DNA of 64,000 nucleotides, taken from positions 14,241 through 78,240 of the forward strand of contig CACXMR010000004.1 of assembly GCA_902768825.1 (NCBI GenBank), in the 5' to 3' direction. The DNA comes from an uncultured Ruminococcus sp. Its GTDB lineage: Bacteria > Bacillota > Clostridia > Oscillospirales > Acutalibacteraceae. The translations under genes were made by a program, and so were the position numbers. The notes beneath the pieces are model-generated. The model saw only the letters and a program-made list of their open reading frames with translations, had not been told where the DNA came from and did not search any database. Below are positions 9,786 through 58,664 of the stretch, piece after piece. Within the stretch, counting starts at the first letter, position 1. The number at the start of each line of letters is the position of its first letter.

Positions 9786-9848
9786 TTTTTTCACACCTTT
9801 ATATTAGCATAGTCCTATTACCGTACAACACAGATTTTTCAAGATGCT

Positions 9849-13184: not shown

Positions 13185-13394
13185 AAGACCACACTCCAAG
13201 AATTGTTTTATCAAACAAGCAGGTATTTAACAGGTAATTGGGAATATTTCATATAAAAAACCTTTTTACTTATCATGTTTTATAGTAAGATTATATCATT
13301 AATCGACAAAGCGTGTCAAGATTTTGCTCCAGAAGAACCTCTTGTTAAAACATGGATATCGGAAGCCTGAAAAAACTACTCTTCCATACATAAG

Positions 13395-25567: not shown

Positions 25568-25789
25568 AACATTTCTCCTTTCATATCGTACAAATGGGAC
25601 TGTCAGTTTCTTATACTAATACGAAAAAACTCATAATTCTAATTAATCATACCAGAAATTTTAATAATTGTCTATTATTTTTTGGCAATTTCTTAACTAA
25701 ACAGTGGACAACGACTGTTTTTTTTGATATCATCTTATCAAGGCTTTCACCCTGAGATCGGAATATTCTTTACAGAAAAGGTGGACAAC

Positions 25790-27532
25790 ATGGAGCGAAG
25801 CGGAAGACTGATCAATCATAAATATAACGAATATTTCTTTACAACGCTGGCAATGAGCGGATGTGCTTCCATTGCCTCGATCGTGGACAGGATCATGGTC
25901 GGGCACCTTTTGACTGCCAATGACCTGAATGCTACCAACCTTATAGGTCCGCTGATCTACATACTTAATATGATTTTCGGATTATTCATCTATGGCGGAA
26001 ATACGCTGGCTGTGACCTATAAGGGAAAACGAGATCAAAAAACAGCTAACAAATGCTTCACAATTTCAATTATTGTCGGATCCGGCTTTATGGCCGTTTT
26101 TGCGATAGTAGGCCTGATTTTGCAGGCTCCTCTTTCCTATTGGCTCTGCTCAGGTAAGGAGGAATTATTAAAACCTGTTTCAGATTACCTTATCCCTGTA
26201 TTGTTCCTGGGAATCCCTATGATATTGCTTAACGGCACGTCTGCTTTCGTCAGAGTAGACGGTCTGCGAAAGCTTGCCATTGCAATGCCAATTGTTTCCA
26301 ACGCTATAAACCTACTGCTGGATTACGTTTTTATGGGGGTATTAAAGCTTGGCATTGCCGGAGCCGGCTGGGCAACAAACATCGGTTTTACTGCGGCACT
26401 GGTTCTGCTGATACCCTATTTCCGCTCACAAAAGCGCACTGTGTTCTTTACTAAGGTCGGGTTAAAGGATATCCGTCTGATGTTCAACGCCTTTCATCTG
26501 GGGCTTGCAACGGCAATGATGTATCTTTGTATGTTCATCAAAACAAAATTCCTCAATACGATAGTTCTTGGTGTGCTGGGTGCAGTAGGCGGTCAGATCC
26601 TTGTGGTGTGCGCATCTGTAACCAGTGTAGCAAATATCTTCTTTACGGGAACTGCTCAGACAATGCTGCCTATCAACGGCGCACTGTACGGTGCAAAGGA
26701 TTATAAAGGCATCCGTCAGCTTTTCAAACGTGCGATGATCGTGATGGAGATCATCTGTGTTGCCATAATGGTTGTGTTTATGCTGTTTCCCATTCAGACC
26801 GGTGCGGTGTTTAATGTCACAAGTCCCGAAGCTCAGGAGCTTTTGCCCGGAGCAATTTTCCTGTTCTCACTTTGTGTTCCTCCCACGGGTATGCTGTTCA
26901 TCCTCCGCTCTCATTATCAGTCAACCGGTCACCGTAACGCAGCAACGGTGCTGACCATTCTGGAAGGAACGGTTTTCTTTATTCCCGTGCTCTGGATACT
27001 GTCTCTGATTGATCCCAATCTTGTCTGGCTGTGCCACGTTATCTCTATCCTATTGGCAATTGTATCCGTTTTGCTTGTAATGGGAATAATCGCAAAACGA
27101 AAAGGAAGGTCTGCTTTTTTGCTGCTGCCTAAGCAGGAGGACGGAGATATTATTGATTTCAGCATCGAAAACAACGTGGACTCGGCTGTAGAAGCGTCTC
27201 ACAAGGTAGTCGATTACTGCAAGGAAAGAGGCGTTGAGGCTGATGTTGCAAACAAAATCGGTGTTTCTGTTGAGGAGCTGTGCGTAAATACAGCACAGTA
27301 CGCCGCAAGCTCTAAATCTGATATGGTGGATATTTTCGTGAATATCACGCCCGAAGCGGTTATTCTTAAGGTGCGGGATAACGGAAAGATATTCAATCCC
27401 ACGGAGTATATTAATAATTCCGGCGAGATGATAACCGGACTAAAACTGATAAGAAGCATTAGCTCAAAAGTAGAATATAACCGTGTTATCGGCTTTAACA
27501 CCACAATCGTCACGATTAACAGAAGGAAATAA
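25790..27532 (+). CDS. MATE-family efflux transporter fused to a C-terminal SpoIIAB/RsbW-like HATPase (anti-sigma-factor kinase-like) domain
   Basis: About 450 aa of MATE-like polytopic region, then ~130 aa (nt ~27143-27529) with N-box-like VSVEELCVNTAQYA, G1-like LKVRDNGKIF and G2-like EMITGLKLI. AAGGTGG RBS upstream of the ATG at 25790. Confidence 0.75.
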   Translation: MERSGRLINHKYNEYFFTTLAMSGCASIASIVDRIMVGHLLTANDLNATNLIGPLIYILNMIFGLFIYGGNTLAVTYKGKRDQKTANKCFTISIIVGSGFMAVFAIVGLILQAPLSYWLCSGKEELLKPVSDYLIPVLFLGIPMILLNGTSAFVRVDGLRKLAIAMPIVSNAINLLLDYVFMGVLKLGIAGAGWATNIGFTAALVLLIPYFRSQKRTVFFTKVGLKDIRLMFNAFHLGLATAMMYLCMFIKTKFLNTIVLGVLGAVGGQILVVCASVTSVANIFFTGTAQTMLPINGALYGAKDYKGIRQLFKRAMIVMEIICVAIMVVFMLFPIQTGAVFNVTSPEAQELLPGAIFLFSLCVPPTGMLFILRSHYQSTGHRNAATVLTILEGTVFFIPVLWILSLIDPNLVWLCHVISILLAIVSVLLVMGIIAKRKGRSAFLLLPKQEDGDIIDFSIENNVDSAVEASHKVVDYCKERGVEADVANKIGVSVEELCVNTAQYAASSKSDMVDIFVNITPEAVILKVRDNGKIFNPTEYINNSGEMITGLKLIRSISSKVEYNRVIGFNTTIVTINRRK

Positions 27533-28759: not shown

Positions 28760-29257
28760 TTATCGGTTTCTGATAGTCTCCGGGTATAGATCGTGGGTTG
28801 AAAGCCTTTCCCAGGCGAGCTTTTCATACTTTGTACCGGGTTTGCCATAGTTACAGTAGGGATCTATGGATATTCCGCCACGAGGCAGGAATTTTCCCCA
28901 GACCTCAATGTATTTCGGGTCCATAAGAGCGATCAGGTCCTTCATGATTATATTCACGCAGTCCTCGTGGAAATCCCCGTGATTTCGGAAGCTGAACAGA
29001 TACAGCTTTAACGACTTGCTCTCTACCATAAGCTTATCAGGTATGTAGGATATATAAATGCAGGCAAAATCCGGCTGTCCGGTAATAGGACACAGGCTTG
29101 TAAACTCAGGACAATTAAACTTTACAAAGTAATCGTTGTCCGGATGCTTATTCTGAAATGTCTCAAGCACCTCAGGGGTATACTCAAAGCCGTAGGAGAC
29201 ATTTTTATTTCCAAGCAGTGTGATGCTGTTTCTCTCTGATTCCCTTGATTTTTCCAA
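28760..29257 (-). CDS. queF: NADPH-dependent 7-cyano-7-deazaguanine (preQ0) reductase
   Basis: Collinear with unimodular QueF as I recall it. QueF motif [16 protein letters not shown] and Cys-containing [17 protein letters not shown] start at 29257, 6 nt after GGAGGAGG. The track start at 29311 overlaps queC. Confidence 0.9.
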
Positions 29258-29258
29258 A

Positions 29259-29948
29259 TTAATCCTCCTCCCGAAATGCCGGGTCCTCGATACCGTTTGC
29301 CCTGAAAGCATTCAGTCTGTCACGGCAGGTGCCACACAGTCCGCAAGGCTTATCCCCGCCCTCATAACAGCTCCAGGTCATCTCATAGGGCACTCCTATT
29401 TTCAGCCCCTCTGCAACCACCTGGGCTTTTGTCATGCCAATAAACGGCGCAACTATCCTTAATTGCTCACCGCTGCCTACATAAACAGCCCGTCCGATGG
29501 AGTCGTTAAACTCACTGCTGCAATCCGGATATGCATTGCCTGCGGCATCATCACTGTGAGCACCGTACCATATTTCTGTGCAGCCGTTTGACAGTGCAAT
29601 GGCTGCCGCACATGAAATAAACAAACCGTTTCTGAAGGGAACGTATGTTGACACCGGCTTGCCCTCTCTTTTGTCAAGCTGATCCTTATAGCTTTCCTTG
29701 GGCACCTCTTCTGTGCTTGATGACAACAACGAGCAGTCAGAGCCCTCGAATATTCCTGCAAGATCAAGGGACCTGAGCCTGACAGAATAATAGTCCGCTA
29801 TTTTTTTGGCAGATTCAAGCTCACGGGTGTGCTTTTGTCCATAACCGATGGAAAGGGCGAGAACCTGCTCCGATCCGTATTTATCTATTGCCAGTGCAAG
29901 AGCCGTTGTGCTGTCAACACCACCGCTGAATAATACAAGCGCTTTCAT
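29259..29948 (-). CDS. queC: 7-cyano-7-deazaguanine synthase
   Basis: PP-loop [14 protein letters not shown]-terminal Zn cluster [10 protein letters not shown]. Confidence 0.92.
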
Positions 29949-29965
29949 TTCTTCATCCCCGATCC

Positions 29966-30535
29966 TCAATCAAACTTAACATATTGTCTTAGCTCTTTCT
30001 CTGTTTTGAACCTTCCCTTAAAGGTAGCCGTAAGGGTTTTTGCCGAAGCGTTTTTGATACCCCTGGCGGTCATACAGCTGTGGCAGCCGGATATCATAAC
30101 AGCCACATCCTCTGTTCCCGCAGCCTCGGAAATAATATCAGCAATATCCTTTCCCAGCTTCTCCTGGAGCTGCAGACGCTTTGCCGCCATCTCACAGATC
30201 CTTGCTATCTTGCTCAGACCAAGAACCTTGCCCTTTGGGATATACGCCACATTGACCTTCATATCATACATAAGTGCAAGATGATGCTCACAATAGCTGA
30301 AAACCGTTATATCCTTCTCAACGATTATGCTGTCCTCGTCATATCCGTCTGGTGCATCAAAAACCTTTCCAAACATGACCGCTATATCGTGGTTTGAATA
30401 TGCTGTGCCTTCAAGGACCTCGGCAAGCATTCTTGCAACTCTCTCAGGGGTTTCCCTCAGACCTTCACGGTCAGGATCCTCCCCTATTGCTTCCAGCAAG
30501 CCCCTCACATGATATTCTATCGCTTTTTTATCCAT
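29966..30535 (-). CDS. folE: GTP cyclohydrolase I
   Basis: GEDPDREGLRETPERVA, SYCEHHL and HSCMTARG motifs. 189 aa. Confidence 0.92.
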   Translation of the reverse strand: MDKKAIEYHVRGLLEAIGEDPDREGLRETPERVARMLAEVLEGTAYSNHDIAVMFGKVFDAPDGYDEDSIIVEKDITVFSYCEHHLALMYDMKVNVAYIPKGKVLGLSKIARICEMAAKRLQLQEKLGKDIADIISEAAGTEDVAVMISGCHSCMTARGIKNASAKTLTATFKGRFKTEKELRQYVKFD

Positions 30536-30539
30536 TCTC

Positions 30540-31199
30540 TCACACTCCTCTTTTATCAGGGTCCCAGATAAACTTGTGCATCTGGAGCTGCAGTCTTACA
30601 TGGTTCATGTTATTGCTTATCAGGTAGCTTACGATCTCCGCAGGAGAAATGCTCCCGAATACAGGGCTGATAAACACATGGCACCTGTTTGTAAGGTCAT
30701 ATTCCTCGATGATTTGCTTTGCTCTGTCAAGATCCTCTTTAGTGCCGGACACGAATTTTACGCTGTCATGCCTGCCCAACACTTGGAAATTGCTTTTATT
30801 CATTGCCTTTTCCATTCCACTGGAAGGAAGCTTATAATCCATGGTATAGCATACACGCTCCCTGTTTTTGAAGCATTCCGCCAGCTCGATACTCCCGTTT
30901 GTTTCGATCTCAACACGGCAGCCCAAAGCTGCAAGACTATCAATTATGGGAACAATATCCTCCTGCAGCAGCGGTTCGCCGCCCGTAAGGGTAACATTAT
31001 TACAAGCGGTCTGTCTGATCCATTCCGTCAGCTGCTCTACACTTTCCTCTGTATAAGGCACATCATCGCAGTTTGCCCATCTGGTATCACAATAGGAGCA
31101 GTTGAGATTGCATCCCTTAAACCGGATAAAGGCAGCTATTTCACCTGCGTGAGGACCTTCGCCGTTAATGCTTACAAATTTTTCTACGACCTTAGCCAT
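30540..31199 (-). CDS. queE: 7-carboxy-7-deazaguanine synthase (radical SAM)
   Basis: SINGEGPHAG and the CNLNCSYCDT radical-SAM cluster. AAGGAGG 5 nt before the ATG at 31199. The track GTG at 31217 overlaps the queD stop. Confidence 0.9.
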   Translation of the reverse strand: MAKVVEKFVSINGEGPHAGEIAAFIRFKGCNLNCSYCDTRWANCDDVPYTEESVEQLTEWIRQTACNNVTLTGGEPLLQEDIVPIIDSLAALGCRVEIETNGSIELAECFKNRERVCYTMDYKLPSSGMEKAMNKSNFQVLGRHDSVKFVSGTKEDLDRAKQIIEEYDLTNRCHVFISPVFGSISPAEIVSYLISNNMNHVRLQLQMHKFIWDPDKRGV

Positions 31200-31213
31200 A
31201 ACTGCCTCCTTAG

Positions 31214-31633
31214 TCACCTTTCATAGGAAGCACAGTTTTGAGGCGTCTCATAAACAGTCACCTTTATTACCGGCAGTCCTCTTTTATTCAGTTCCTCAAA
31301 AAACATCCTTGCAAGGTTCTCAGCTGTCGGACGACAGGGGATCTCAATTATACGAAATCCCTCTTCCATGAGAGCTGCGAAAGTTTTGCTTTTTAATGAA
31401 CCCTTTTCAATTATGAGTGCGTGGTCATAGCCGTCAGCAATAGCTCTGACCTCTCTTTTCAGATCTCCGAAATCAATAAGCATTCCTCTCTTATCGCCTT
31501 GCGCACAGAGACTCTCTCCTGCCACTTCAGCTTCTATCAGCCAGCGATGTCCATGGATATTGGCACATTTTCCCTCATATCCTGACAAAAAATGCGCACT
31601 GTCAAAAGCTGCACTGGTTTTAAGAGTATACAT
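31214..31633 (-). CDS. queD: 6-carboxy-5,6,7,8-tetrahydropterin synthase
   Basis: FDSAHFL...CANIHGHRW motif. The start at ATG 31633 (MYTLKTSAAF) is preferred because the track start at 31681 lies inside a terminator hairpin. Confidence 0.88.
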   Translation of the reverse strand: MYTLKTSAAFDSAHFLSGYEGKCANIHGHRWLIEAEVAGESLCAQGDKRGMLIDFGDLKREVRAIADGYDHALIIEKGSLKSKTFAALMEEGFRIIEIPCRPTAENLARMFFEELNKRGLPVIKVTVYETPQNCASYER

Positions 31634-31644
31634 TTCATCACCCC

Positions 31645-31678
31645 AAAAAATAAAGCGCCTGCAGTCAGCAAGCGCTTT
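31645..31678 (-). terminator. Second terminator-like hairpin in the que leader
   Basis: AAAGCGC (31678-31672) / GCGCTTT (31658-31652) with a 13-nt loop, then ATTTTTT. Lies 12 nt before the queD ATG region. Confidence 0.6.
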
Positions 31679-31700
31679 CATCGTTGTATATCAGGTACAG

Positions 31701-31906: not shown

Positions 31907-33685
31907 TCATTCCTCAATAGCAAGAAGTGCTGCTGAATAAGGCGGAAGGTTGCTGATAAGCTTTTGACCTGCGAGGGTAAAGAGCTCATGGGGCGCCGCA
32001 ATACTGCCACCAAATCTGACATCCTCTGAACAGAGCAATAGCTTTGCATTCTTTACCTTTTCAAGCTCAAGGGTATAGCCCGACTGAACAGTATTTCCGA
32101 AATTGAACAGTGCAAGCAGAGTTTCCTTCTTGCTGCGGCGTATGACAGCATAGATAAGCCTTGATTCCTGGTGGCAATCAGCCCATTCAAAGCCTGAATC
32201 AGAATAGTCATCCTCATACATAGCCGGATGCTCCAGATAAGCATTGTTAAGAGCGATCATATATTCGTTGAAGGTCTTATGCTTGAAATCCTCCAGCAGG
32301 AAAAAGTCAAGCTCTCTCTTTTCATCCCACTCACGGAGCTGCCCAAGCTCATTGCCCATAAAATTGAGCTGTTTTCCGGGATGGGTGAGCATATACATAT
32401 ACAGAGCTTTTGCCTGGCTGAGCTTTTCATACTGCGAGCCATACATCTTGTTTACTATAGTGCCCTTACAGTGAACAACCTCGTCGTGTGAAAACGGCAG
32501 GAGATACTGCTCATCACGGAAATACATCATTGAGAAGGTAAGTTTGTGATACTTTTCAACACGCTTCTCCGGCGGAAGAGCAAAATAGCTCAGTGTGTCA
32601 TTCATCCATCCCAGATCCCACTTATAGTCAAATCCGAGACCGCCTTTACTTGCGGGTGTTGTGATGCCCTTGAAGCTTGTGCTGTCCTCTGCAATGAGCA
32701 TACAGCCGGGATTCATGGTTTTAAGCTTACTGTTCATGTTTTTAACAAAATCCAGAGCGTTGCTGTTGACTCCACGCCTCTCGTCGCCCTGCCAGAATAT
32801 AATTCTGCTGATAGCATCCATTCTCAGACCGTCAAAGTGGAACTCCTTCAGCCAGTAATTTGCAGATGACTGCAGGAAGCTCTTTACTTCACCTCTCGAA
32901 TGCATGAAATTGCAGCTTCCCCACTCGCTCATTCCAACATCGTTGTTAGGATACTCATACAGTGCGGAGCCGTCATATCTTGCAAGTCCATAAGCATCCA
33001 CAGCAAAATGAACAGGAACGAAGTCAAGGATCGCACCAATGTTATTCTTGTGCAGCATATCTATAAGCTTCATCAGCTTTTCGGGTGTACCATACCTGCT
33101 GGTGGGCGCAAAATAGCCTGTTGTCTGATATCCCCAGCTCTCATCACTGGGATGCTCACAAAGGGGAAGAAACTCTACATAATTATATCCGCTCTTTAAA
33201 AGGTAAGGAATCAGCACCTCACCAAGCTGCTCATAATCATACCAGCTATCAGGGGCACTGCCGGGCTTTTTAAAAGAGCCTGCATGGAGCTCATAAATAT
33301 TCAGCGGCTTTTTGAGCATATCAGAACGTTTCTTCATCCAGTCACCGTCTTTGAATGTGTATGACGAAAGGTCAACTGTGATTGAACGATGATTCGGACG
33401 AAGCTCCATTGAATAGCCGTAGGGATCACAGTGATCAACCTGACCGTTGTTGCCGCGAATACGATATTCATACTTTGTACCCACCGGAAGATTCTCTACG
33501 CTGATCTCGTAGAACTGACCGTTATATACCTTCTCCATAGGGATAACCTTATCTTCAAGAACCAACTCAACTCCGGAAGCCTGCGGTGCAAACGTCCTGA
33601 AGGTAGTTTCCTCCTGGGTACAGTGAGCACCAAGCCAGTTATAAGCATCAAAGATCGCACCAGTGTAAAAACCGTAAAAATCCAT
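31907..33685 (-). CDS. glgB: 1,4-alpha-glucan (glycogen) branching enzyme, GH13
   Basis: 592 aa. N-terminal CBM48-like region and GH13 catalytic signatures (GAILDFVPVHF, FDGLRMDAI, MLIAEDST, FSHDEV). Confidence 0.92.
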   Translation of the reverse strand: MDFYGFYTGAIFDAYNWLGAHCTQEETTFRTFAPQASGVELVLEDKVIPMEKVYNGQFYEISVENLPVGTKYEYRIRGNNGQVDHCDPYGYSMELRPNHRSITVDLSSYTFKDGDWMKKRSDMLKKPLNIYELHAGSFKKPGSAPDSWYDYEQLGEVLIPYLLKSGYNYVEFLPLCEHPSDESWGYQTTGYFAPTSRYGTPEKLMKLIDMLHKNNIGAILDFVPVHFAVDAYGLARYDGSALYEYPNNDVGMSEWGSCNFMHSRGEVKSFLQSSANYWLKEFHFDGLRMDAISRIIFWQGDERRGVNSNALDFVKNMNSKLKTMNPGCMLIAEDSTSFKGITTPASKGGLGFDYKWDLGWMNDTLSYFALPPEKRVEKYHKLTFSMMYFRDEQYLLPFSHDEVVHCKGTIVNKMYGSQYEKLSQAKALYMYMLTHPGKQLNFMGNELGQLREWDEKRELDFFLLEDFKHKTFNEYMIALNNAYLEHPAMYEDDYSDSGFEWADCHQESRLIYAVIRRSKKETLLALFNFGNTVQSGYTLELEKVKNAKLLLCSEDVRFGGSIAAPHELFTLAGQKLISNLPPYSAALLAIEE

Positions 33686-38070: not shown

Positions 38071-38261
38071 CCCTCCGACCACCGCTATTTTGTGTCTGAT
38101 TAACATTATAACCACAATATATAGTATTGTCAAGTCTTTACAGATACAATATATACGCTGAACTTTGGTATAAAATGCACATTAACCACAAAACAAAAGG
38201 CTCCGGCAAATGTCCCGCTTTTGGAACAATGTCGGAGCCTTGGATTATTATTGAAAACTGA

Positions 38262-40055
38262 TTATCTCTGAGGGCCGCCCATGCCGCCTCTGCCGCTGAT
38301 CTCTGAATAATAAAGACCTGATGAAAAATCTGCTGTTGCAGTGCTGTCTCCCGCACTGATGGTATAGGTGCTGCCCTGCTTCAGCTCAGGTGATGAGTAA
38401 ACAACCGACGAGAAGCTCTTGTTTGCAGTAAAGGTAAAGCCTGAACCGTCATCTACTGTGATGGTTGTTCCCTCTGAGCCGGAGAGCGAAACGAGCGCAG
38501 AGCACTGAGTGCCGGAATCAAAGTTGATAGCCATGTCTGAAGTGCCTATAGCTATTACGGTGCCGCCGGTTATGCTTGCCACACAATCGCTGCCGTCGCC
38601 CTTGTCAAGAGCTCCGTTGCCTGCAGAGGACGGACCTTCTACTATGACCGTACCGCCGGTGATGTAGATAGAGCCGTTGCTGTCAAGGCCGTCGCCCTCG
38701 GAATTAACGTGTACCTCTCCTCCGTTGATTGTGAGCTTTGCATTGGTGTTTCCGCTGCCCCAGGGGTTGTCGTCCTTGGAAGTCGTATCAGAACCGCCGG
38801 AGCAGTTTATACCGTCATCACTGGCAGTAACGCCAACAACACCGCCGTTAATGGTTATATTCTCCGCCTCAAGACCCTCGTAGGATTTTGTAACAACCAC
38901 TGAGCCTCCGTTTATGGTCAGATCACCGGATGCTGTGATACCGTCATCGCCCGAGCTTAAACCTATGGTACCTGAATTAATAGTAATGCTTGCATTGCCA
39001 TGGATAGCGTCGTCAGCAGCCGAAACCGTGAGCGCAGTCTCGGAGATGATCAGATCGCCGTCGGTTTTGATGCCCTTCTGAGAGGTATTGCTGTCCTTTG
39101 AAGAATCTGAGCCTGAGCCTGACGCCGTGATTACTGTCAGAATACCTCCATTGAGTTCAACCGTCCCTGTAAAGGTTTTATTGTCATCCCCTGCCTTGAC
39201 CGAAATTCCGTCGTAGCCGGAGGAAATCACAAGCTTAGCCTTTTCAAAGTAGAAGCTTGCATCATTATCATCGTTTTCTATCTGTATTCCGTCATGGCCG
39301 GAGGTGACAGCTATCTGACCGCCGCCTATGCGCACAGTACCCTCAGACTTGATGCCGATACTGTCTGCGTTGAGTTCAAGCTGTGAATCAGTGATCTTCA
39401 GATCATTCTTGCACACGATGCCATGCAGATTGGACTTGATTTTTAATGAACCGCTGCCGTTGATCGTAACGTCATCCTTTGCATATATCGCTGCATCCTC
39501 CTTTGCCGAGCTGTTGCTGCTGTTGAAGGTAAGAGCGTTATCACCGGTACACTGGATTATGACCTTGTCAGCATTCTGCACCTTAATACAGGGTGCGGAT
39601 GAGTTAGTCATGGTAACGCCGTCAAGGATGAGATACACATTTCCGGACTTTGTGGAATCATCTATCACGATAGACACGTCCTGGGATGAACCCGTCACCT
39701 TGTAAATCCCCTTTGAGGTTATGGTCACTGTACTGCCGGAAACAGAGCCTCTTGTAGAGTCAGATAGCTCCGCTGCGGAGCCTGAAAGGGTTATCACCGC
39801 ATGGGGCGTTTCGCTGCTCATATCCTTATAGTCGCTGTCTGAAAAATATGAGCTTTCCGACGTCGACTGTGAGCTGTCAGAGGACGTGTCGGATACTGGG
39901 GAAGCACCTTCCCCACTGTTATCTGTTTTTGAATCATCGGATACAGCCGCTGATGAGACTTTGGAAGTATCACCTTCGCTGCCCTGATTGCCGCATCCCG
40001 AAAAGACCGTCAATGATACTACCATAGATAAGAATATTATTAAAGCCTTTTTCAT
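38262..40055 (-). CDS. Lipoprotein with Cthe_2159-like carbohydrate-binding parallel beta-helix domain
   Basis: Lipobox LTVFSGC. Ser/Asp-rich linker. Repeated beta-helix rungs (DGIQIEND, DGISVKAGDD, DDGITASGDLTINGG, DDGINCSGG, GDGLDSNGSIYITGG). Confidence 0.75.
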   Translation of the reverse strand: MKKALIIFLSMVVSLTVFSGCGNQGSEGDTSKVSSAAVSDDSKTDNSGEGASPVSDTSSDSSQSTSESSYFSDSDYKDMSSETPHAVITLSGSAAELSDSTRGSVSGSTVTITSKGIYKVTGSSQDVSIVIDDSTKSGNVYLILDGVTMTNSSAPCIKVQNADKVIIQCTGDNALTFNSSNSSAKEDAAIYAKDDVTINGSGSLKIKSNLHGIVCKNDLKITDSQLELNADSIGIKSEGTVRIGGGQIAVTSGHDGIQIENDDNDASFYFEKAKLVISSGYDGISVKAGDDNKTFTGTVELNGGILTVITASGSGSDSSKDSNTSQKGIKTDGDLIISETALTVSAADDAIHGNASITINSGTIGLSSGDDGITASGDLTINGGSVVVTKSYEGLEAENITINGGVVGVTASDDGINCSGGSDTTSKDDNPWGSGNTNAKLTINGGEVHVNSEGDGLDSNGSIYITGGTVIVEGPSSAGNGALDKGDGSDCVASITGGTVIAIGTSDMAINFDSGTQCSALVSLSGSEGTTITVDDGSGFTFTANKSFSSVVYSSPELKQGSTYTISAGDSTATADFSSGLYYSEISGRGGMGGPQR

Positions 40056-40095
40056 AGATATTACACTCCTTGTCTGTTTACAATTGATCTGAAAG

Positions 40096-40118
40096 CCGCT
40101 GATGAGGTGCATCAGCGG
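40096..40118 (-). promoter_or_regulatory. Intra-operon GC-rich hairpin between the DUF4956 and beta-helix genes
   Basis: CCGCTGATG / CATCAGCGG 9-bp stem with a 5-nt loop. Only a weak T tract (CTTTCAG) on the minus strand. Confidence 0.5.
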
Positions 40119-40150
40119 TCACAGACTTGCCGGATATTCTTCCGGAGATA

Positions 40151-40825
40151 TCAAAGCTGGTTCTGGGGCTCGGTGTAGGGCAGGACTGCTATTTCAAGGT
40201 TACCGTTCTTTGTCCTGAGCTCATCTATGAATTCCTTCTCCTCGGCAGGATCCTTCATTACGATCTTGAATGAAAGCCTGAACATTGATCCCATACCTGT
40301 TGTCTTGACACCTGCATTCTCAAAGCTCTTAAGATAGTGCTTGAAGGTGTCGTCAAAGGCTCCGGTATATTCAAGTGATTCAGGGATTGTTATGCGGAGA
40401 AGACGTTCCTCGCTCATGGACTTATGCTCAAAGATCGGAAGCAAGGACAGCACAAGATAGATAACCGCCATACCGATGAGGATGATAACTCCGTATGCCA
40501 CATAGCCCATACCAAAAGCAATGCCCGAACCCATGGCAATGAGAAGTGAGCTTATCTCGTCTGCGCTTCCGGGTGCGCTTCTGAAACGAATGAGACTGAA
40601 GGCTCCTCCTACTGCGACTCCGGCGCCGATATTGCCGCTGACAAATGTAATTACCGCAGAAACGATAAACGGAACAACAGCCGTCACTATGAAGAAGCGT
40701 TTCTTTGCCCTTATCTTGAAGGACATCAGCCAGGAAAAAACAAAGCCCGAAACGAGGGAAGCCGCCGCCATAATAAAAAACTGTGATGTAGTAACTCCGG
40801 TTGCTGTATAAATTGAATCAAACAT
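40151..40825 (-). CDS. DUF4956-family integral membrane protein
   Basis: Four or five TM helices. Signature GGAFSLIRFRSAPGSADEISSLLIAMGSGIAFGMG. Soluble C-terminal ~90 aa. ATG at 40825 overlaps the VTC stop (ATGTTTGA). Confidence 0.8.
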   Translation of the reverse strand: MFDSIYTATGVTTSQFFIMAAASLVSGFVFSWLMSFKIRAKKRFFIVTAVVPFIVSAVITFVSGNIGAGVAVGGAFSLIRFRSAPGSADEISSLLIAMGSGIAFGMGYVAYGVIILIGMAVIYLVLSLLPIFEHKSMSEERLLRITIPESLEYTGAFDDTFKHYLKSFENAGVKTTGMGSMFRLSFKIVMKDPAEEKEFIDELRTKNGNLEIAVLPYTEPQNQL

Positions 40826-41549
40826 TATATATCTTCCTTTCGTTTTTAACTTTAAGCAATTGCTGTCTATAGGCTTCTCCATATTTAGAAAAGCTGCCCT
40901 TATAGATATGTCCCTTTGTAAGTATATCTGAGAGCCACAGCGGAACTGATTGCTGCACCTTTACTTCCAGTATGGTATAGCCGTCCTTCAGGAGCGAATT
41001 GCCTTCCATAGAGGTTTTGAGATCCAGATTTTCATAGCGGTACCTGGGATCATGGTCAATGGTCAACCTGAGATCACCGTCCGGCTGGAAGTAAGCTACT
41101 CTGTCATAAATAATCAGACAGGCCGGCACAAGAGTCTGATAATAATCACGGAAGGTGGTTATCTCTCTGTTTATCTGACCGCCTGCGCAGATATCTCCTT
41201 CGCCGTAGAAGAATTTGTTGACAAGAGGGATAGTGGACTGGACCCTGCGTTTATATACAATCCCGTAAGCCTTGCGTTTCAGCTCAAGAAAAACCGGCGA
41301 TGTGTCAGTGGCAATGCCATAGGAGCGAAGCCTGATCTTTTCCTTAAAAAGCGGCTTTTCCACTGATGTCCTGATAAGCCTGTAATTAGGGGTATCATAA
41401 TAGAGTGATGCAATTGAGGTCAGACCGTATTTATCGATCTTCATGTGCCCTTCCACACTCTTTTTGAAGTATTCCGTCTGTTCGGGACTCATAATATACT
41501 TCATCTCGTAGCGTTTCATAACTACGATGGGTTTTGTCGCTTCAGCCAT
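40818..41549 (-). CDS. VTC-domain (polyphosphate polymerase / triphosphate-tunnel-like) protein
   Basis: 243 aa. N-terminal KRYEMKYIM, LYYDTPNYRLIR, EKIRLRSY, LELKRK, ILEVKV strand pattern typical of bacterial VTC/CYTH-like tunnel proteins. Confidence 0.75.
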   Translation of the reverse strand: MAEATKPIVVMKRYEMKYIMSPEQTEYFKKSVEGHMKIDKYGLTSIASLYYDTPNYRLIRTSVEKPLFKEKIRLRSYGIATDTSPVFLELKRKAYGIVYKRRVQSTIPLVNKFFYGEGDICAGGQINREITTFRDYYQTLVPACLIIYDRVAYFQPDGDLRLTIDHDPRYRYENLDLKTSMEGNSLLKDGYTILEVKVQQSVPLWLSDILTKGHIYKGSFSKYGEAYRQQLLKVKNERKIYNV

Positions 41550-41564
41550 AATATCACCTTCTTG

Positions 41565-42896
41565 TCACAGATAGAGACTTATGCTCATTTTTCCGTTCTT
41601 GACAGAAGCCGATAATCTTCCGTCGTTTGTGAGGATAATGCTCTTTACCTTTGAAAGTCCAAGACCTGCTCCCGTCGTTCCCTCGGCGTTTTCAAGAGTA
41701 GTAAACCTGTCAAATATCTGATCGTAGCTGCCGTCGGGAAGTGAAGTGTCATTCTGCTGTACAAGCTTTATTCTGTCCTTGTGTCTCGTCAGGGTAAATT
41801 TTGCTTCAGAGACCGAAAACTTCAGTGAGTTTGAAATCAGCTCCCTCATTATTTCCTTGAAGGAATTGTCGTTGATTAAAACCATTATTTCCGGTTCGAT
41901 GTCGAAGCTTAGTTTAATCTTCTTTTCTTCATATTTGCTCCTGTTGTTTTCAAGCATCGCTATCATCAGGTCGGAAATGTCAAGCTTTGTCTTGCTCTCA
42001 GGCTCTTCAAACAAGCTCAGTGCTCCAAGCTCCTTGACAAGACCTGTCATTCGTCTTACCTGTTTTTCTATGGACTTGGTCTGGTCGTTAGGCTCGCTCT
42101 GACGTTCAAGAGCTTCGGTGTCTGCATTGATGATCGTCAACGGCATCTTGAATTCGTTTTCCAGTCGGGCAATAAATTGCTTCTGTTTCCTGTCAGCTTC
42201 CTCAAGAGGCTTAAACAGCTTACGTCCCACAAGCTGGAAGGTCAGGACTATAATCAATATCATCACCGCACCGCCGATAATGGATATAATGAGTATCCTG
42301 TAGCAGGGCCAAAGCTCACGGCTCTGATCTATGACTGTAACATAGGTCTTATGGTTTGCTTCATAAACACGGTAACGGTAGGATGTATTTGTCCAGCCAA
42401 CGCTTCCATACTGCAGGCTCTCAGCCCACTGCTGTGCCTCCTCTTCACTGACCGACGCCATCCTCAGATCTACCTTTTCTACATTTCCGTACTTGTCGAT
42501 GGAGTAGGTAAAGTAACTGAGGGAGGATTCCATTTCAGGGCTGTAGGGGCCGAATTTTCCGAAACCGCCCTCAAGCCGGAAGGGCTTTACATCACCCTTA
42601 TTCTTTTTGTTGGTCTTATCCTTATCCGTCTGAGCCGATGTCTCAGAGGAATTACTGCTCTGGGAGACTTCTTCATCATTCGGAAGCTCGCCGCCGTCAG
42701 GCCGAGGAGATTCATCAGGGAAGTTTTGCGTTCCTTCAAAAGAACCGTTCATCCTGGCTATGCGCTCTGTAACCCTGTCAGCATCCTCGGCGGCCATGGT
42801 AAAACTCAACACATTGATCGACATCAGCAGCAGCGACAGGAGAAGCAGAACAGCTAACTCCGAAAAGAGAATAAATTTTTTTCTTGCCTTATTCAT
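41565..42896 (-). CDS. Histidine-kinase-like sensor with Asn in place of the phospho-accepting His
   Basis: Two TM helices around a ~170-aa extracytoplasmic domain. H-box-like FIARLENEFKMPLTII (expected ..SHELKTPLT..). N-box ELISNSLKFS. G2 box GAGLGLS. G1 (DxGxG) is not recognisable. Confidence 0.75.
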   Translation of the reverse strand: MNKARKKFILFSELAVLLLLSLLLMSINVLSFTMAAEDADRVTERIARMNGSFEGTQNFPDESPRPDGGELPNDEEVSQSSNSSETSAQTDKDKTNKKNKGDVKPFRLEGGFGKFGPYSPEMESSLSYFTYSIDKYGNVEKVDLRMASVSEEEAQQWAESLQYGSVGWTNTSYRYRVYEANHKTYVTVIDQSRELWPCYRILIISIIGGAVMILIIVLTFQLVGRKLFKPLEEADRKQKQFIARLENEFKMPLTIINADTEALERQSEPNDQTKSIEKQVRRMTGLVKELGALSLFEEPESKTKLDISDLMIAMLENNRSKYEEKKIKLSFDIEPEIMVLINDNSFKEIMRELISNSLKFSVSEAKFTLTRHKDRIKLVQQNDTSLPDGSYDQIFDRFTTLENAEGTTGAGLGLSKVKSIILTNDGRLSASVKNGKMSISLYL

Positions 42897-43494
42897 TTTG
42901 AATCTTCACCATCCTATATCCCTCGTTGATGAGGTATTTTATTCTGAAATGCTTGTTCAGTTTTTCAAGCTTATAGTTAAGTGCAGAGATATAAGGAGCA
43001 ATATGCTTACCGCTTACCTGCTCATGCTTTACAATCGAGTCAAACAGCTCAATCTCTCCCTCGGTAACAGGAACGCTCCCACATAGCTTGAAATCCGAAG
43101 GAGTTATGCTTACATCTTCAAAGCTGAGCTTCGACGTGCTGTTTACGTTTTCCGTCACACGCTTTATCAGTCCGGTGAGATCCCCCGGAAGAAACGGCAG
43201 CGACAGATAGGCATTTGCAAGAGGCGAACCCATAAGTCTTGAAGCAGTCAGCTTACCTGAGATCAATACTATAACAGGAACATTCCTTGCTAAAAGAGAA
43301 GGAATAAGTGTTTTGGCGCTGATCCTTGGTATCGACTCATCTACAATTGCAATATCAAAGCTCTGACCGCCTTCAATCCTGGAGATAACCTGGGTCCCAT
43401 CGTATACAGTGGTCACAGTGTTATTATCAAGACCGAGAAGAAACGAAAAAGCCTTTGAAAAATCCCTGTCCTGCTCGGCGATAAGAATATTCAT
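42889..43494 (-). CDS. OmpR-type response-regulator-like protein with atypical receiver
   Basis: Receiver with D52 (IAIVDESIP) and S79, but Leu where the conserved Lys is expected (AYLSLPF). Short winged-helix-like C-terminus. Its stop overlaps the HK start (ATGAATAA). Confidence 0.7.
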   Translation of the reverse strand: MNILIAEQDRDFSKAFSFLLGLDNNTVTTVYDGTQVISRIEGGQSFDIAIVDESIPRISAKTLIPSLLARNVPVIVLISGKLTASRLMGSPLANAYLSLPFLPGDLTGLIKRVTENVNSTSKLSFEDVSITPSDFKLCGSVPVTEGEIELFDSIVKHEQVSGKHIAPYISALNYKLEKLNKHFRIKYLINEGYRMVKIQNE

Positions 43495-43908
43495 CTGTCA
43501 TCCCTCCTTGTAGGCTTTATCTTTATCGTTTGTTATATTTTAAATTATTGATATAAATCCGATGTGAAAATAAAATGAAAATAAAATGAATTGTATCTGA
43601 AAAGATTTCAAGATATTGCTAAATTATAAGTATTACATTATTTTCCTGAACGGAGCCGTAATATATCAAAAAATGCTGAGAATAATAATATCACAGCCAT
43701 ATAGTTGATGCGGCCAAGCACAGAGAACATCATTACCCTGAGCTTCACCGTATCAAATCTTAGGTGAGATCAGGGTCTAAGGCTGCTTTTCAGAGTTATC
43801 CTATCAAACAAAGCTTGCATAAGACGACTGATCCCCTGAATTGTCTTTGAAAAATAAAGACTGACGCAATGGATCATGGCTGTAAAAATTTAAAAAGGAG
43901 CAGTTCTT

Positions 43909-44112
43909 ATGTCAAGCAATAATAACAGCAGCAACTCTATCAACGTCCCCGAAGCAAGACAGGCAATGGATCAGTTTAAGATGGAGTGTGCAAACGAGGT
44001 CGGCGTGAACCTTAAGCAGGGCTACAACGGAGACCTGACATCCCGTCAGGCAGGCTCAGTGGGCGGACAGATGGTCAAGAAAATGATCGAGGCTTACGAA
44101 AAGAGTATGTAA
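43909..44112 (+). CDS. Alpha/beta-type small acid-soluble spore protein
   Basis: 67 aa. EARQAMDQFKMECANEVGV and GSVGGQMVKKMIE motifs. AAAGGAG RBS. Confidence 0.9.
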   Translation: MSSNNNSSNSINVPEARQAMDQFKMECANEVGVNLKQGYNGDLTSRQAGSVGGQMVKKMIEAYEKSM

Positions 44113-46426: not shown

Positions 46427-46602
46427 CCTGAAAGTCGAATTATCTGATTTTTCAGAGATTGATATAGTTTTTATTCTCATTTTATATTACTTTTATGTTA
46501 AAATGACCTTGTAACTTCTTTGTAAATTGACTTTTTTGTGGTGTTGTACTATAATTTATTACTAAGAAAGCAAACGGATAATAATATTTATTGGAGGCTG
46601 CC

Positions 46603-49365
46603 ATGCCAAGGAGCTTTTTTTACAGTATAAATCTATTGATAAAAAGTGACTCTCATCTGAATAAAGCTATATCCTCTGTCGTTGCGGATGAAGCGTTTTT
46701 TCTTGAGCACGTCCAGTTGATTCTTATTGATTCTCTGTGCAGTGAACAGAGTCTTTCTGTCTGCTCAGAATTCAACAAAAAGTATCCTAACAATGTGTAT
46801 TTTGTTGACGCCGCAGGAAAATCCGAAGCCTCCGCTTATAATGATGCAAGGATGCTTAATTTCGGAAAATATATTGCATATATAGATAATTACAGCGAGT
46901 ATTCACCAAAGACTCTCAGCACCCTTCAGAGCGGGACTCTCAAGTCACTGAAGATTCCGCTGCTGTGTATAGAGCCTATGATTTCTCCTCCGGGTGAAGA
47001 GCCGAGAGCCTATACAAAAGAAATACCTAAAGGCCTCATCAAACTAAAGGAAACACCGGATAAGTTTATACTCATGCTTGGTTGCTGGTTCTTCCGAAGA
47101 AAAATAGCAGAAATGCTGGTCTTTGATGAGGAAATACCCTTTCAGGCTGACGCAAAGTTTATATGTGAGGCACTATTGCAGACTTATTCATACATATTCA
47201 TCGACAACCATAAGTATACAACCACACTGCCGTCTGACCATGATATGTTCAGATATGTTCCTCAATACAGCAGGTTTTTTTACACTCAGTCCATCAGCTC
47301 TCTTGTCATCCCCACACTCATCAGCTATCCAGGCTCTGCCTTGGCACAGTCGATGATGATGTATCTCATTTGCAGCAGATTTGCACTTAATTCTGACGAG
47401 AAATATAAGCACGTAATAATCGGAAGCTTTGTTGATGAGTTTCTCGATAAGGTTTCGGAAGCACTGAAGTATATCGACAACTCCATTATTCTCAACAGGA
47501 ACATCTACAGGCTGTGCGGTCTTGACGAGGAGATGCCCTTCAGGATGCTGAGGCTGAAATATAAGCAGCCGGATCTGAATCCCACTATCGACCTTGTTCT
47601 TCCCAAGGACCAGGCTGAAAAAAGCTATTACAACTCCTGCATACGGCTGGAAAAAACTGTCCTCAGCGGTGAATTTACAGCCCACCATGAGCTTGCCGTG
47701 GTAGGAACTTCGAGAGACATTACGGCGAACATCACAGCAATCAACTATGACTCTGACGGTCTTTATATTGACGCAACCCTTAACGGATGCTCTTATCTTG
47801 ACGAGGGCACCTTCAGGATCTTCGTCAACGTAAACGGCGAGCGCAGATCAGTTATCAGCTCTCAGGTTTACACCCTGAGGAAATGCTTTGATATCCCATT
47901 CCTCAAGAGATACTCATTCCGGTTTTTTGTTCCTGTGAGCAGCGGAAAGACCATCGATACCGCCTATCTGATAATGAAATATCAAAACCTTTCATTCAGG
48001 ATAGGAATGACCTTTGACGGAATATTCTCCAGACTCTCCACGGAGCTTAAAAACAGCTACTGGAACTTCAGGGACAGAGTTATGCTATATGACCGCAAGT
48101 CTCAATCCTTGGTTATCAGAAGAGCCACAAACAGTCTGCTGAGAATGTGTGAGGCAAAGTTTATGTCTGAAGCGGGATCAAGGGTCACGCTACAGGAATC
48201 CCTATACTACAGACAGCTGCGCAAGAGCATCAAAAACACCGCAGAAGAAAAAACCGACAGCAAATACCTGCTCTTCTATGACGAGCTTGGTATTAATTCA
48301 AACGGAAACATTCTGTTCAGATATTTTTCTAAGCACATCAACAACGACAAAGCAGAAATATTCTATGGTGCAAGGGGCGGCTCGGCGGAGTATGAATTTC
48401 TTATGTCCGGGGAATACAGCGGTGTTCTGGAGCTTGGCTCAAAAAAATCAAAGATAATTGCCGCCTGTGCGGATATCATTTTTGCCACCGACTGCGATGT
48501 GTATGAATCACTCATGTTCAGCAGCACGGACATTATGTTCCTTAAAGATCTCATTAGCGCACAAATCGTTTCTGTCAAGGATTTCTTCATTACCTATGCA
48601 ACTGCACAGTTTGATAACCGCCTGAGAGACAACACTCAATTGTTCTTCTGTTCCTCGGAAAAGGAAAAGGAGCACATCACAAAGGGTATATATGACTATG
48701 ATGAATCTATGATAAAGATTACAGGATACCCGATACTTGACACCCTAAGCAGTAATCCGGAAAAACTTATTCTCATAGCACCAGGAGACAGGAGGCAATT
48801 CTGTATTTACGATAATTCTGACTTTTACCGTTTTTCAGAGAGCCGGTTTTTCAGACTGTATAATGACATACTGACCGATCCCAATCTGCGCAGTGCCCTG
48901 AAGGAAAGGGGCTATCGTATCGCTGTCATAATGCCTTTTACTATAGACAAGTATATCAATCTTTTCCACAGTGACGAGCTTGTCGCGTTATATCACAGCG
49001 ATGACATTAACGAAAACGAATTGATAAAAAAGGCATCCGTCCTGATAACGGACTACTCCGATCTGCAGTTCAAATTCTCATATCTTGACAAGCCTGTAGT
49101 TTATTATTTCCCCCACGGCCTTCCCGTTCAGCAGGAGTATAAAAACGAGGGACTTGCCAAAAACAGCTTCGGCAAGCTGTTCTTTGAACACGATACTCTT
49201 ATAGCACACCTTATTTCTGAGATGGGGAAAGATTTTCCACAATCAGAGCACTATTCACGGATGAACAAGGAATTTTTCAAATTTCACGACAACCACAACT
49301 GTCGCAGGATACTCCGTTCAGTAAAGAGCTCATTCCTTGGAAGCATATTCAAAAACGAGGAATAA
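46603..49365 (+). CDS. Bifunctional-looking GT2-like / CDP-glycerol glycerophosphotransferase (TagF/TagB-family) protein
   Basis: N-terminal ~230 aa GT-A/GT2-like. C-terminal Glyphos_transf-like signatures (ITGYPILDTL, VLITDYSDLQFKFSYLDKPVVYYFPH). GGAGG 5 nt before the ATG at 46603. Confidence 0.75.
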   Translation: MPRSFFYSINLLIKSDSHLNKAISSVVADEAFFLEHVQLILIDSLCSEQSLSVCSEFNKKYPNNVYFVDAAGKSEASAYNDARMLNFGKYIAYIDNYSEYSPKTLSTLQSGTLKSLKIPLLCIEPMISPPGEEPRAYTKEIPKGLIKLKETPDKFILMLGCWFFRRKIAEMLVFDEEIPFQADAKFICEALLQTYSYIFIDNHKYTTTLPSDHDMFRYVPQYSRFFYTQSISSLVIPTLISYPGSALAQSMMMYLICSRFALNSDEKYKHVIIGSFVDEFLDKVSEALKYIDNSIILNRNIYRLCGLDEEMPFRMLRLKYKQPDLNPTIDLVLPKDQAEKSYYNSCIRLEKTVLSGEFTAHHELAVVGTSRDITANITAINYDSDGLYIDATLNGCSYLDEGTFRIFVNVNGERRSVISSQVYTLRKCFDIPFLKRYSFRFFVPVSSGKTIDTAYLIMKYQNLSFRIGMTFDGIFSRLSTELKNSYWNFRDRVMLYDRKSQSLVIRRATNSLLRMCEAKFMSEAGSRVTLQESLYYRQLRKSIKNTAEEKTDSKYLLFYDELGINSNGNILFRYFSKHINNDKAEIFYGARGGSAEYEFLMSGEYSGVLELGSKKSKIIAACADIIFATDCDVYESLMFSSTDIMFLKDLISAQIVSVKDFFITYATAQFDNRLRDNTQLFFCSSEKEKEHITKGIYDYDESMIKITGYPILDTLSSNPEKLILIAPGDRRQFCIYDNSDFYRFSESRFFRLYNDILTDPNLRSALKERGYRIAVIMPFTIDKYINLFHSDELVALYHSDDINENELIKKASVLITDYSDLQFKFSYLDKPVVYYFPHGLPVQQEYKNEGLAKNSFGKLFFEHDTLIAHLISEMGKDFPQSEHYSRMNKEFFKFHDNHNCRRILRSVKSSFLGSIFKNEE

Positions 49366-58659: not shown

Positions 58660-58664
58660 AGGGA

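Follow-up and report, generated by a model that had tools for sequence, protein, structure and literature searches.

The 64,000-nucleotide stretch of DNA considered here, hereafter the window (contig CACXMR010000004.1 of an uncultured Ruminococcus sp.), carries a five-gene operon built around two proteins: a stand-alone member of the VTC family, related to the catalytic tunnel domain of the eukaryotic polyphosphate polymerase Vtc4, and a DUF4956 membrane protein. Accompanying these are a lipoprotein of the Cthe_2159 family and two proteins that resemble a histidine kinase (HK) and a response regulator (RR). The distribution of these genes among Clostridia is revealing of their organization, in that VTC and DUF4956 constitute an obligate core that is often accompanied by the lipoprotein and by the regulators as accessories. 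The best explanation of this arrangement, which is put forward tentatively, is that the operon specifies a membrane-coupled polymerase of the Vtc4 type whose product works with the beta-helix lipoprotein at the cell surface, and that the sensor pair operates independently of phosphorylation.

All five open reading frames of the operon lie on the minus strand between positions 38262 and 43494 (Table 1). A preliminary description of this DNA had claimed a co-directional and tightly packed gene set, and each of its junctions is recovered when the sequence is taken straight from the strand. More specifically, RR and HK share 8 nt at their stop and start (ATGAATAA), the TGA of HK is followed after a gap of 15 nt by the ATG of VTC (caagaaggtgatatt), and the VTC stop and the DUF4956 start again overlap by 8 nt (ATGTTTGA). 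Because its start codon overlaps the VTC stop, the DUF4956 start is placed at 40825, and an in-frame upstream ATG at 40882 was rejected given this junction. The hairpin said to precede the lipoprotein gene is equally real and stable, lying 3' of the DUF4956 stop with a folding energy of -27.7 kcal/mol (z = -3.8; none of 200 shuffles was as stable). Since its U-tract is weak, this hairpin probably acts as a partial terminator or as a stabilizer and not as a full stop. The lipoprotein gene begins with an ATG at 40055 preceded by the ribosome-binding site AAGGAG, and the operon ends in a terminator hairpin (38197-38241; -25.1 kcal/mol, z = -5.05) followed by the U-tract UUUUGUUUUG. Likewise, the domains named in the preliminary description (VTC, DUF4956 and Cthe_2159) all score above their Pfam cut-offs in profile searches.

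Upstream of RR is a tandem direct repeat of 11 bp (TTCATTTTATT). Variants of this repeat (TTCATTTTAATTTCATTTTGTTTT and similar) occupy the same position in the close relatives L005-L007, and recognizable remnants are found in L012, L014, L032 and L034. A periodicity of 11 bp is typical of OmpR/PhoB-type sites, and the repeat is therefore read as a candidate regulator-binding site. Just upstream of the repeat lies another conserved element, with the form CTTGAA...TTTTCAGA / TCTTAAAA.

The VTC protein (243 aa) matches Pfam PF09359 at E = 6.5e-42 and 144.1 bits (cut-off 23) over model positions 1-232 of 235, which is its sole Pfam match at E <= 0.01. The VTC domain covers the full length of the protein, and neither an SPX domain nor a transmembrane segment was found in it. 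Pairwise searches against solved structures gave weak matches; a profile of 15 bacterial VTC proteins, extending down to 37% identity, aligns with Vtc4 (3g3q) from the first strand onward at E = 3.9e-10. Based on HMMER alignment, with Vtc4 numbered as the 3g3q chain index + 185, residues R13, K17, R73/R75, K91, K100, Y148/R150, E195 and S221/K222 of the window protein are equivalent to R196, K200, R264/R266, K281, K294, Y359/R361, E426 and S457/K458 of Vtc4, respectively, the last of these equivalences being based on a motif (SFSKY vs KFSKF) within a local alignment that is not significant alone. The required basic and acidic tunnel residues are present: eight of the nine essential Vtc4 residues are invariant in the 15 bacterial sequences, and the ninth, Y148, is kept in at least 90% of them. 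R13 and K100 are also invariant, and K222, the K458 equivalent from the motif alignment, lies within the invariant motif FSKYG. Mutation of these tunnel residues abolishes polyphosphate synthesis in yeast, and K458 is the sole position that distinguishes Vtc4 from the inactive Vtc2 and Vtc3, in which it is Ile or Leu (10.1101/2023.01.27.525886). In addition, a Vtc4 R264A/R266A/E426N mutant is catalytically dead (PMC9911596). Judging from this pattern of residues, polyphosphate polymerase activity of the bacterial protein is plausible.

Alternatively, the VTC-like protein could be a hydrolase or signalling enzyme (a tripolyphosphatase, an NTPase or cyclase-like) that, with DUF4956 and the sensor pair, controls the beta-helix protein. 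Most tunnel metalloenzymes hydrolyse triphosphates, and in these hydrolytic enzymes an ExExK motif binds the metal (PMC9582702). Where Vtc4 has R-x-T-x-K, the bacterial proteins have R-x-E-x-K, with E15 in place of Thr198; the second Glu of ExExK, missing from Vtc4, is thus retained and hydrolase chemistry is possible. The location of the module beside regulators, whether the two-component pair or the sigma/RsgI-like pair of one distant locus, is also consistent with a signalling role. However, the first Glu of ExExK is an Arg, as is R196 in Vtc4, and the strong match of the protein to the VTC model, to the exclusion of other Pfam families, argues for a polymerase, as does the retention of the Ser-Lys pair (S457/K458), on which polymerase activity specifically depends and which is missing from the non-catalytic Vtc2/3 (10.1101/2023.01.27.525886). 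A hydrolytic or signalling function is considered unlikely.

The DUF4956 protein scores 37.6 bits against Pfam PF16316 (cut-off 30.6), a match that is shared by all 81 diverse relatives collected for comparison. Its family comprises 1,706 representative clusters at 50% identity (E <= 0.001), and its members stand alone in nearly every case, with a length of 220-230 aa. An AlphaFold2 model made with 23 close homologues (pLDDT 59) was set aside and the 81-sequence alignment was used instead, giving a model with a pLDDT of 91.5. This model contains five transmembrane helices (13-34, 42-61, 65-80, 88-105 and 109-128) and a C-terminal domain (140-216) with the beta-alpha-beta-beta-alpha-beta order of an ACT-like fold. 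A positive-inside tally of Lys and Arg residues predicts an N-out, C-in topology, with the ACT-like domain in the cytoplasm. The invariant motif FSL(I/V)RFRS lies where helix 3 reaches the cytoplasm, and this orientation would place both its RFRS part and the ACT-like domain on the VTC side of the membrane.

The preliminary description had suggested that DUF4956 could serve as the channel for the polymer, and for this proposal no direct support emerged. The sequence profile of the family has no match in the PDB at E <= 10, none of the matches from a Foldseek search with the model reached E <= 0.001, and its top 50 include no membrane chain of Vtc1 or Vtc4. Identity of DUF4956 as a recognizable relative of Vtc1 was rejected on these grounds, a failure that weakens the notion of a Vtc1 homologue and not the notion that the protein could form a channel. 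The Foldseek matches are instead ferredoxin/ACT-like folds that cover the C-terminal domain only, including the C-domain of MgtC from M. tuberculosis (2lqj; TM-score of 0.64 normalized on the target). The layout as a whole, five transmembrane helices followed by an ACT-like cytoplasmic domain, is also that of MgtC. MgtC is a regulator that interacts with PhoR and is not a known channel. Weak matches to the prok_STING domain occur in 10 of the 81 DUF4956 members (best E = 0.0038) and were treated as noise.

These resemblances fit an alternative reading in which the VTC protein is indeed a polymerase but its product is cytoplasmic or remains at the inner face, with DUF4956 as an MgtC-like anchor or allosteric regulator that possibly contacts the HK-like protein, and with the lipoprotein connected only through common control as part of an envelope or phosphate response. 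Beyond the architecture, the C-domain matches and the absence of channel-like similarity from the PDB profile and Foldseek results, this reading is consistent with matches of 8 among the 81 DUF4956 proteins to the MgtC model PF02308, all of them below the cut-off of 31.4 bits and the best at 20.5 bits (E = 6.4e-4), with the name 'YhiD' given to some members by JGI, and with the kinase or kinase-like gene that nearly always adjoins the module. The authors who described the Streptococcus intermedius genes likewise assumed a cytoplasmic product (10.1101/2024.04.20.589940). However, homology of DUF4956 to MgtC/SapB/YhiD is without statistical support, the hhalign probability against E. coli YhiD being 0.18%, and a product confined to the cytoplasm makes it hard to explain why the module recurs beside exported proteins, namely Cthe_2159 proteins here and CotH and exopolysaccharide machinery elsewhere. 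A cytoplasmic product is judged somewhat unlikely.

Conservation of the gene neighbourhood was assessed in two sets of loci. One genome per GTDB species was scanned, which yielded 299 genomes with a VTC relative, and the best 80 loci (69-95% identity) were analysed as close loci; ten distant loci (32-51% identity) were picked via a profile of the 81 diverse DUF4956 proteins. Identical copies of the VTC protein are found on cattle-rumen metagenome contigs, and its relatives come from metagenome-assembled genomes of the rumen labelled Ruminococcus sp., Acutalibacteraceae or Clostridia. The order RR-HK-VTC-DUF4956 is kept in approximately 75 of the 80 species-level rumen Clostridia genomes, and both gene order and strand are constant across the close loci. 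An HK-like gene is present in 75 and DUF4956 in 78 of these loci, the gaps being mostly at contig ends. Median spacing is -8 nt from RR to HK, 16 nt from HK to VTC, 17.5 nt from VTC to DUF4956 and 24 nt from DUF4956 to the Cthe_2159 gene; the 8-nt overlap of RR and HK is retained in most close loci, and VTC and DUF4956 overlap or are separated by 30 nt or less in 57 of 78. Identity to the window proteins reveals that VTC (71-95%) and DUF4956 (64-94%, with one locus at 48%) are conserved much more strongly than HK (32-69%), RR (24-71%) and the lipoprotein (~50-75%). The Cthe_2159 gene is directly downstream of DUF4956 in 28 of the 55 close loci with enough contig left and upstream of RR in 5 further ones, for a total of about 60%. 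In the close loci that lack it, no other recurrent partner was found downstream of DUF4956, where the genes are housekeeping ones as judged by eye (RluD-, MnmA- and GlmM-like, V-ATPase subunit I and others).

The distant loci exhibit the same core. VTC is directly upstream of DUF4956 in all ten, a Cthe_2159 gene adjoins the module in seven, and in two further loci lipobox proteins with no Pfam match occupy the Cthe_2159 position. A canonical response regulator and histidine kinase pair is adjacent in five of the ten. The five-gene set of the preliminary description is thus borne out as a recurrent theme, and the lipoprotein, being missing from part of the loci, is accessory. In distant locus L097 (5403-7336) a sigma-70-like gene and an RsgI-like anti-sigma gene follow VTC-DUF4956-Cthe_2159. 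This arrangement echoes the sigma/anti-sigma pair that heads NELoc-2 of Clostridium perfringens and suggests that different extracytoplasmic-sensing regulators have been swapped onto the same module.

The HK-like protein of the window operon possesses two transmembrane helices (segments 6-37 and 195-229), an extracytoplasmic domain of ~157 aa, a DHp-like region and a HATPase_c domain (PF02518; 37.7 bits, cut-off 26.4), and its HisKA match of 23.9 bits is below the cut-off of 26.9. The H-box reads ENEFKMPLT, with Asn247 in the His position. None of 71 orthologues has His at this position (Asn in 25, Ser in 13, Lys in 11, Gln in 10, Arg in 5, and others), and at most one His occurs across the 17 columns around it; the sequences of the N-box (Asn356), F-box (FDRF) and G2 box (GLGLS) have been kept. 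The canonical kinases found beside distant VTC-DUF4956 pairs align with the HK-like protein from the outer sensor domain to the C-terminus (blastp E = 3.5e-32) and have the H-box SHELKTPIT. In the RR-like protein the receiver domain (Response_reg) scores 24.1 bits, below the cut-off of 30.2, and there is no Pfam match to Trans_reg_C. Among 52 orthologues the acceptor position is Asp in 19, the window protein itself having Asp52, and Leu or Phe stands in place of the conserved Lys. Compared with canonical relatives, the winged helix has lost approximately 18 residues, with the recognition-helix and wing segments still aligning, and length is mostly 197-204 aa within the clade as opposed to 222-226 aa in the canonical relatives. 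With these residues lost, the pair would no longer run a His-Asp phosphorelay in this clade.

The degeneracy proposed for this pair from one sequence is therefore clade-wide and not a one-off, and the pair is kept in at least 68 genomes. It is a conserved pseudo-kinase and atypical regulator derived from a working two-component system, not a decaying remnant, and the paired loss of His and of Asp/Lys would offer a clean natural example of a two-component system turned phosphorylation-independent. The mode of regulation that the pair might exert is a matter of speculation. On rumen metagenome contig L002 (8680-9985) the HK gene is split into open reading frames of 173 and 272 aa, due either to a frameshift or to a sequencing error; the VTC, DUF4956 and lipoprotein sequences of that contig are 100% identical to those of the window. 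Such a split gene, along with the fast evolution of RR and HK, could be taken to mean that the HK and RR genes are decaying pseudogenes, or that the five genes are adjacent by chance. That explanation is very improbable, since it is contradicted by the order, orientation and short spacing seen in ~75 of 80 genomes, by the RR-HK overlap kept in most of them, and by intact open reading frames with invariant N-, F- and G2-boxes.

The remaining gene of the operon encodes a clear homologue of Cthe_2159, with E = 1.6e-62 to Pfam PF14262 and, by phmmer, E = 2.7e-24 to the protein of known crystal structure (4peu/4phb). Its signal peptide ends in ...LTVFSG|C, giving the lipobox FSGC, and a Ser/Asp/Thr-rich linker is present. 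The 4peu/4phb sequence also has an N-terminal lipobox. Members of the Cthe_2159 family are polysaccharide-lyase-like, Ca2+-dependent glycan binders, for which binding to cellulose and to polygalacturonic acid in the presence of Ca2+ is reported. No mention of a linkage between Cthe_2159 and VTC-DUF4956 or two-component genes was found in the literature searched. Binding of polyphosphate or of a glycan by the window lipoprotein, as suggested by analogy with these relatives, would be speculative.

The properties of this family also bear on the possibility that the enzyme phosphorylates some other acceptor, generating not free polyphosphate but either a phospho-polymer or a surface glycan or protein that carries phosphate, with the lipoprotein as acceptor-binding or processing partner. 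The reported glycan binding fits such a role, and elsewhere the module is found inside exopolysaccharide loci with a secreted kinase. In the window and its near relatives, moreover, a TagF-like glycerophosphotransferase is encoded 3 kb away. This gene is, however, on the opposite strand and past two unrelated genes, and it is syntenic in close relatives only; furthermore, chemistry of this type is without precedent in the VTC family. Phosphorylation of another acceptor is regarded as quite improbable.

The preferred reading, that of a membrane-coupled polymerase with a product acting at the surface, would make the operon an autonomous cell-envelope module whose core is a stand-alone Vtc4-type tunnel enzyme in fixed stoichiometric coupling with DUF4956. 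The VTC protein would dock on the cytoplasmic face of a DUF4956 oligomer, for which the ACT-like domain and the RFRS motif provide a candidate surface, and would use ATP (or another nucleoside triphosphate) and one divalent metal to form, at the membrane, polyphosphate or a short chain of phosphates. This product would then be passed to, or act on, the outer face of the membrane, where the Ca2+-dependent, polyanion-binding Cthe_2159 lipoprotein may bind or handle it. The HK-like/RR-like pair, descended in this scheme from a genuine two-component system such as accompanies the module in other Clostridia, would probably be a phosphorylation-independent sensor/regulator that combines an extracytoplasmic sensing domain with an ATP-binding domain that has been kept and a response regulator of atypical type. 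Export of polyphosphate by translocation through DUF4956 is a speculative part of this scheme. In favor of the scheme are the full set of Vtc4 tunnel residues in the VTC protein, the strong conservation and close coupling of the VTC and DUF4956 genes, and the topology that brings the ACT-like domain and the RFRS motif to the VTC side. The recurrence of an exported partner, Cthe_2159 here and secreted CotH in exopolysaccharide loci elsewhere, counts for a surface product. No PADLOC defence model was matched and no Rfam family was found in the window, so that neither gives a pointer to an alternative role for the operon, which is also counted in favor of the scheme.

Several observations weigh on the other side. 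The replacement of Thr198 by E15 leaves room for hydrolysis, and literature searches found no activity data for any bacterial VTC protein. The layout of DUF4956 resembles that of MgtC, and the chains of the Vtc1/Vtc4 membrane domain are absent from its top 50 structural matches. An adjacent Cthe_2159 gene is lacking in ~40% of the close loci and in 3 of the 10 distant ones. Finally, the sole candidate for a VTC-DUF4956 fusion, the metagenomic protein P0285 (337 aa), matches the VTC model over positions 35-175 and the DUF4956 model over 33-108 only; because both domains are truncated, it is probably an artefact arising from a frameshifted or chimeric gene call.

In textbook accounts, bacterial polyphosphate comes from PPK1/PPK2 chemistry. 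None of CotH, PPK1, PPK2 and PPX was found in the 64-kb window. The VTC and DUF4956 pair itself has been noted before. With cotH and DUF4832 it forms an accessory set beside Gram-positive pel operons, in which VTC is called a 'poly-phosphate polymerase' (10.1101/768473). In S. intermedius (SIR_1592-1594) the catalytic residues were noted as intact and the polymer was guessed to be cytoplasmic (10.1101/2024.04.20.589940), and in C. perfringens NELoc-2, a locus headed by a sigma/anti-sigma pair, the VTC/DUF4956 pair is duplicated and DUF4956 is mis-annotated as 'tubulin/FtsZ' (PMC2879425). Full-text literature searches found no biochemical or genetic test of a VTC or DUF4956 protein of this pair, nor any functional description of the operon type, in agreement with the preliminary description. 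Its claim that the system as a whole is undescribed holds in part: the pair was already known together with CotH, and what is new is the variant that combines VTC-DUF4956 with a Cthe_2159 lipoprotein and a (pseudo) two-component pair, without CotH.

In its widest form the proposal would give many anaerobic Firmicutes a third, VTC-type route to polyphosphate, without PPK1/PPK2, in which a DUF4956 oligomer extrudes the chain to exported partners and, in the operon described here, a sensor pair that has given up His-Asp phosphotransfer is in control. This extended version is doubtful. If it is true, the partners would be Cthe_2159 lipoproteins in these rumen genomes and secreted CotH kinases and cationic exopolysaccharides elsewhere. 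Extracellular polyphosphate has been reported in some bacteria (PMC12772234, PMC10653871), and no exporter for it is named in the literature found. Delivery to the surface by VTC-DUF4956 would explain the proximity of the pair to exported beta-helix proteins, CotH kinases and Pel-type loci, and would provide an extracellular kinase with a source of phosphoryl donor. Should the stand-alone VTC proteins prove to be active polymerases, Firmicutes of the gut and the rumen would widely possess an enzyme of the eukaryotic type; 3,500 protein clusters at 90% identity were retrieved with the VTC query. The operon is small (~5.2 kb) and experimentally tractable, which makes VTC-type polyphosphate synthesis in bacteria, and possibly its export, directly testable.

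The genes that flank the operon are unrelated to it. One flank encodes NrdD/NrdG and a Crp/Fnr regulator, and the other a type III glutamine synthetase and a small acid-soluble spore protein, the presence of which shows that the host forms spores. In addition to the TagF-like gene, whose product contains a Glyphos_transf domain, a Glyphos_transf pair is found near the module in distant locus L092; this proximity may be a coincidence or may reflect an envelope phospho-polymer theme. Elsewhere in the window is a nonribosomal peptide synthetase encoded in a single open reading frame, with four AMP-binding, three Condensation and four PP-binding stretches and a terminal reductase (NAD_binding_4) in its Pfam content. 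It is flanked by a protein with Reg_prop repeats and by a transporter bearing a C-terminal anti-sigma-kinase-like domain, an unusual fusion, and a TetR-family gene is nearby. The other features recorded are a run of queuosine-type genes and a glycogen branching enzyme gene, both downstream, and a long open reading frame with no Pfam match at E <= 1e-4 (Table 1).

Table 1. Features of the operon and of the remainder of the window, in window coordinates.
Feature	Position	Strand	Description
Response-regulator-like gene (RR)	42889..43494	-	201 aa, degenerate OmpR-type
Histidine-kinase-like gene (HK)	41565..42896	-	443 aa, membrane protein
VTC gene	40818..41549	-	243 aa, stand-alone VTC / triphosphate-tunnel domain protein; candidate polyphosphate polymerase
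DUF4956 gene	40151..40825	-	224 aa, membrane protein
Cthe_2159-family lipoprotein gene	38262..40055	-	597 aa, right-handed beta-helix
Inter-cistronic hairpin, DUF4956/lipoprotein	40087..40126	-	from folding energy vs shuffles
Intrinsic terminator of operon	38187..38241	-	hairpin + U-tract
11-bp tandem direct repeat	43565..43590	-	TTCATTTTATT x ~2.5, ~70-95 nt upstream of RR start
Small acid-soluble spore protein gene	43909..44112	+	
TagF-like CDP-glycerol glycerophosphotransferase gene	46591..49365	+	924 aa, Glyphos_transf
TetR-family gene	9207..9794		
Reg_prop / SpoIIE-type gene	9849..13214	-	1,121 aa, Reg_prop repeats + SpoIIE-type PP2C phosphatase domain
Nonribosomal peptide synthetase gene	13502..25567	-	4,021 aa
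MatE / HATPase_c_2 fusion gene	25724..27532	+	602 aa, MatE transporter repeats + C-terminal HATPase_c_2
7-cyano-7-deazaguanine/queuosine-type genes	28760..31681	-	PTPS, radical SAM, others
Glycogen branching enzyme gene	31907..33685	-	
Long open reading frame	54232..58668	-	1,478 aa

Several known systems invite comparison with the operon. It shares with the eukaryotic VTC complex, in which the catalytic subunit Vtc4 goes with a membrane pore of Vtc1/Vtc2/Vtc3, the PF09359 domain, the Vtc4 tunnel residues including the K458 equivalent, and the tie between a soluble tunnel domain and a polytopic membrane protein. In contrast to that complex, the window protein lacks both an SPX sensor domain and a membrane domain fused to its C-terminus, its membrane partner is a separate DUF4956 protein with no detectable similarity to Vtc1, and Glu15 stands where Vtc4 has Thr198. 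The target of the product would be the cell exterior and not the vacuole, and control would be by a (pseudo) two-component pair and not by inositol pyrophosphates. DUF4956 is similar to MgtC/SapB/YhiD proteins in size, in having about five N-terminal transmembrane helices and in its cytoplasmic ACT-like domain; homology is not established, however, as the Pfam match falls short of its cut-off and ACT-like folds occur in a great many proteins. An N-terminal lipobox is found both in Cthe_2159 of Clostridium thermocellum and in its window homologue, which differs in being about twice as long and in having the Ser/Asp/Thr-rich linker.

As in other pseudo-histidine kinases and atypical OmpR-type regulators, the ATP-binding domain of the window pair is kept, the acceptor His is gone and the receiver Asp/Lys set is incomplete. 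The window operon differs in that both partners are degenerate together, that the DNA-binding domain of the regulator is shortened, and that the pair is transcribed together with an enzyme module that in related loci is accompanied by a canonical pair. The closest parallel in gene content is the accessory set of the pel operons and NELoc-2, likewise uncharacterized, in which VTC and DUF4956 also stand beside genes for exported proteins. No CotH, DUF4832 or polysaccharide synthase was found in the window or in the ~90 related loci (80 close and 10 distant), and the exported partner in the window is instead a Cthe_2159 lipoprotein, with a two-component pair forming part of the operon itself.

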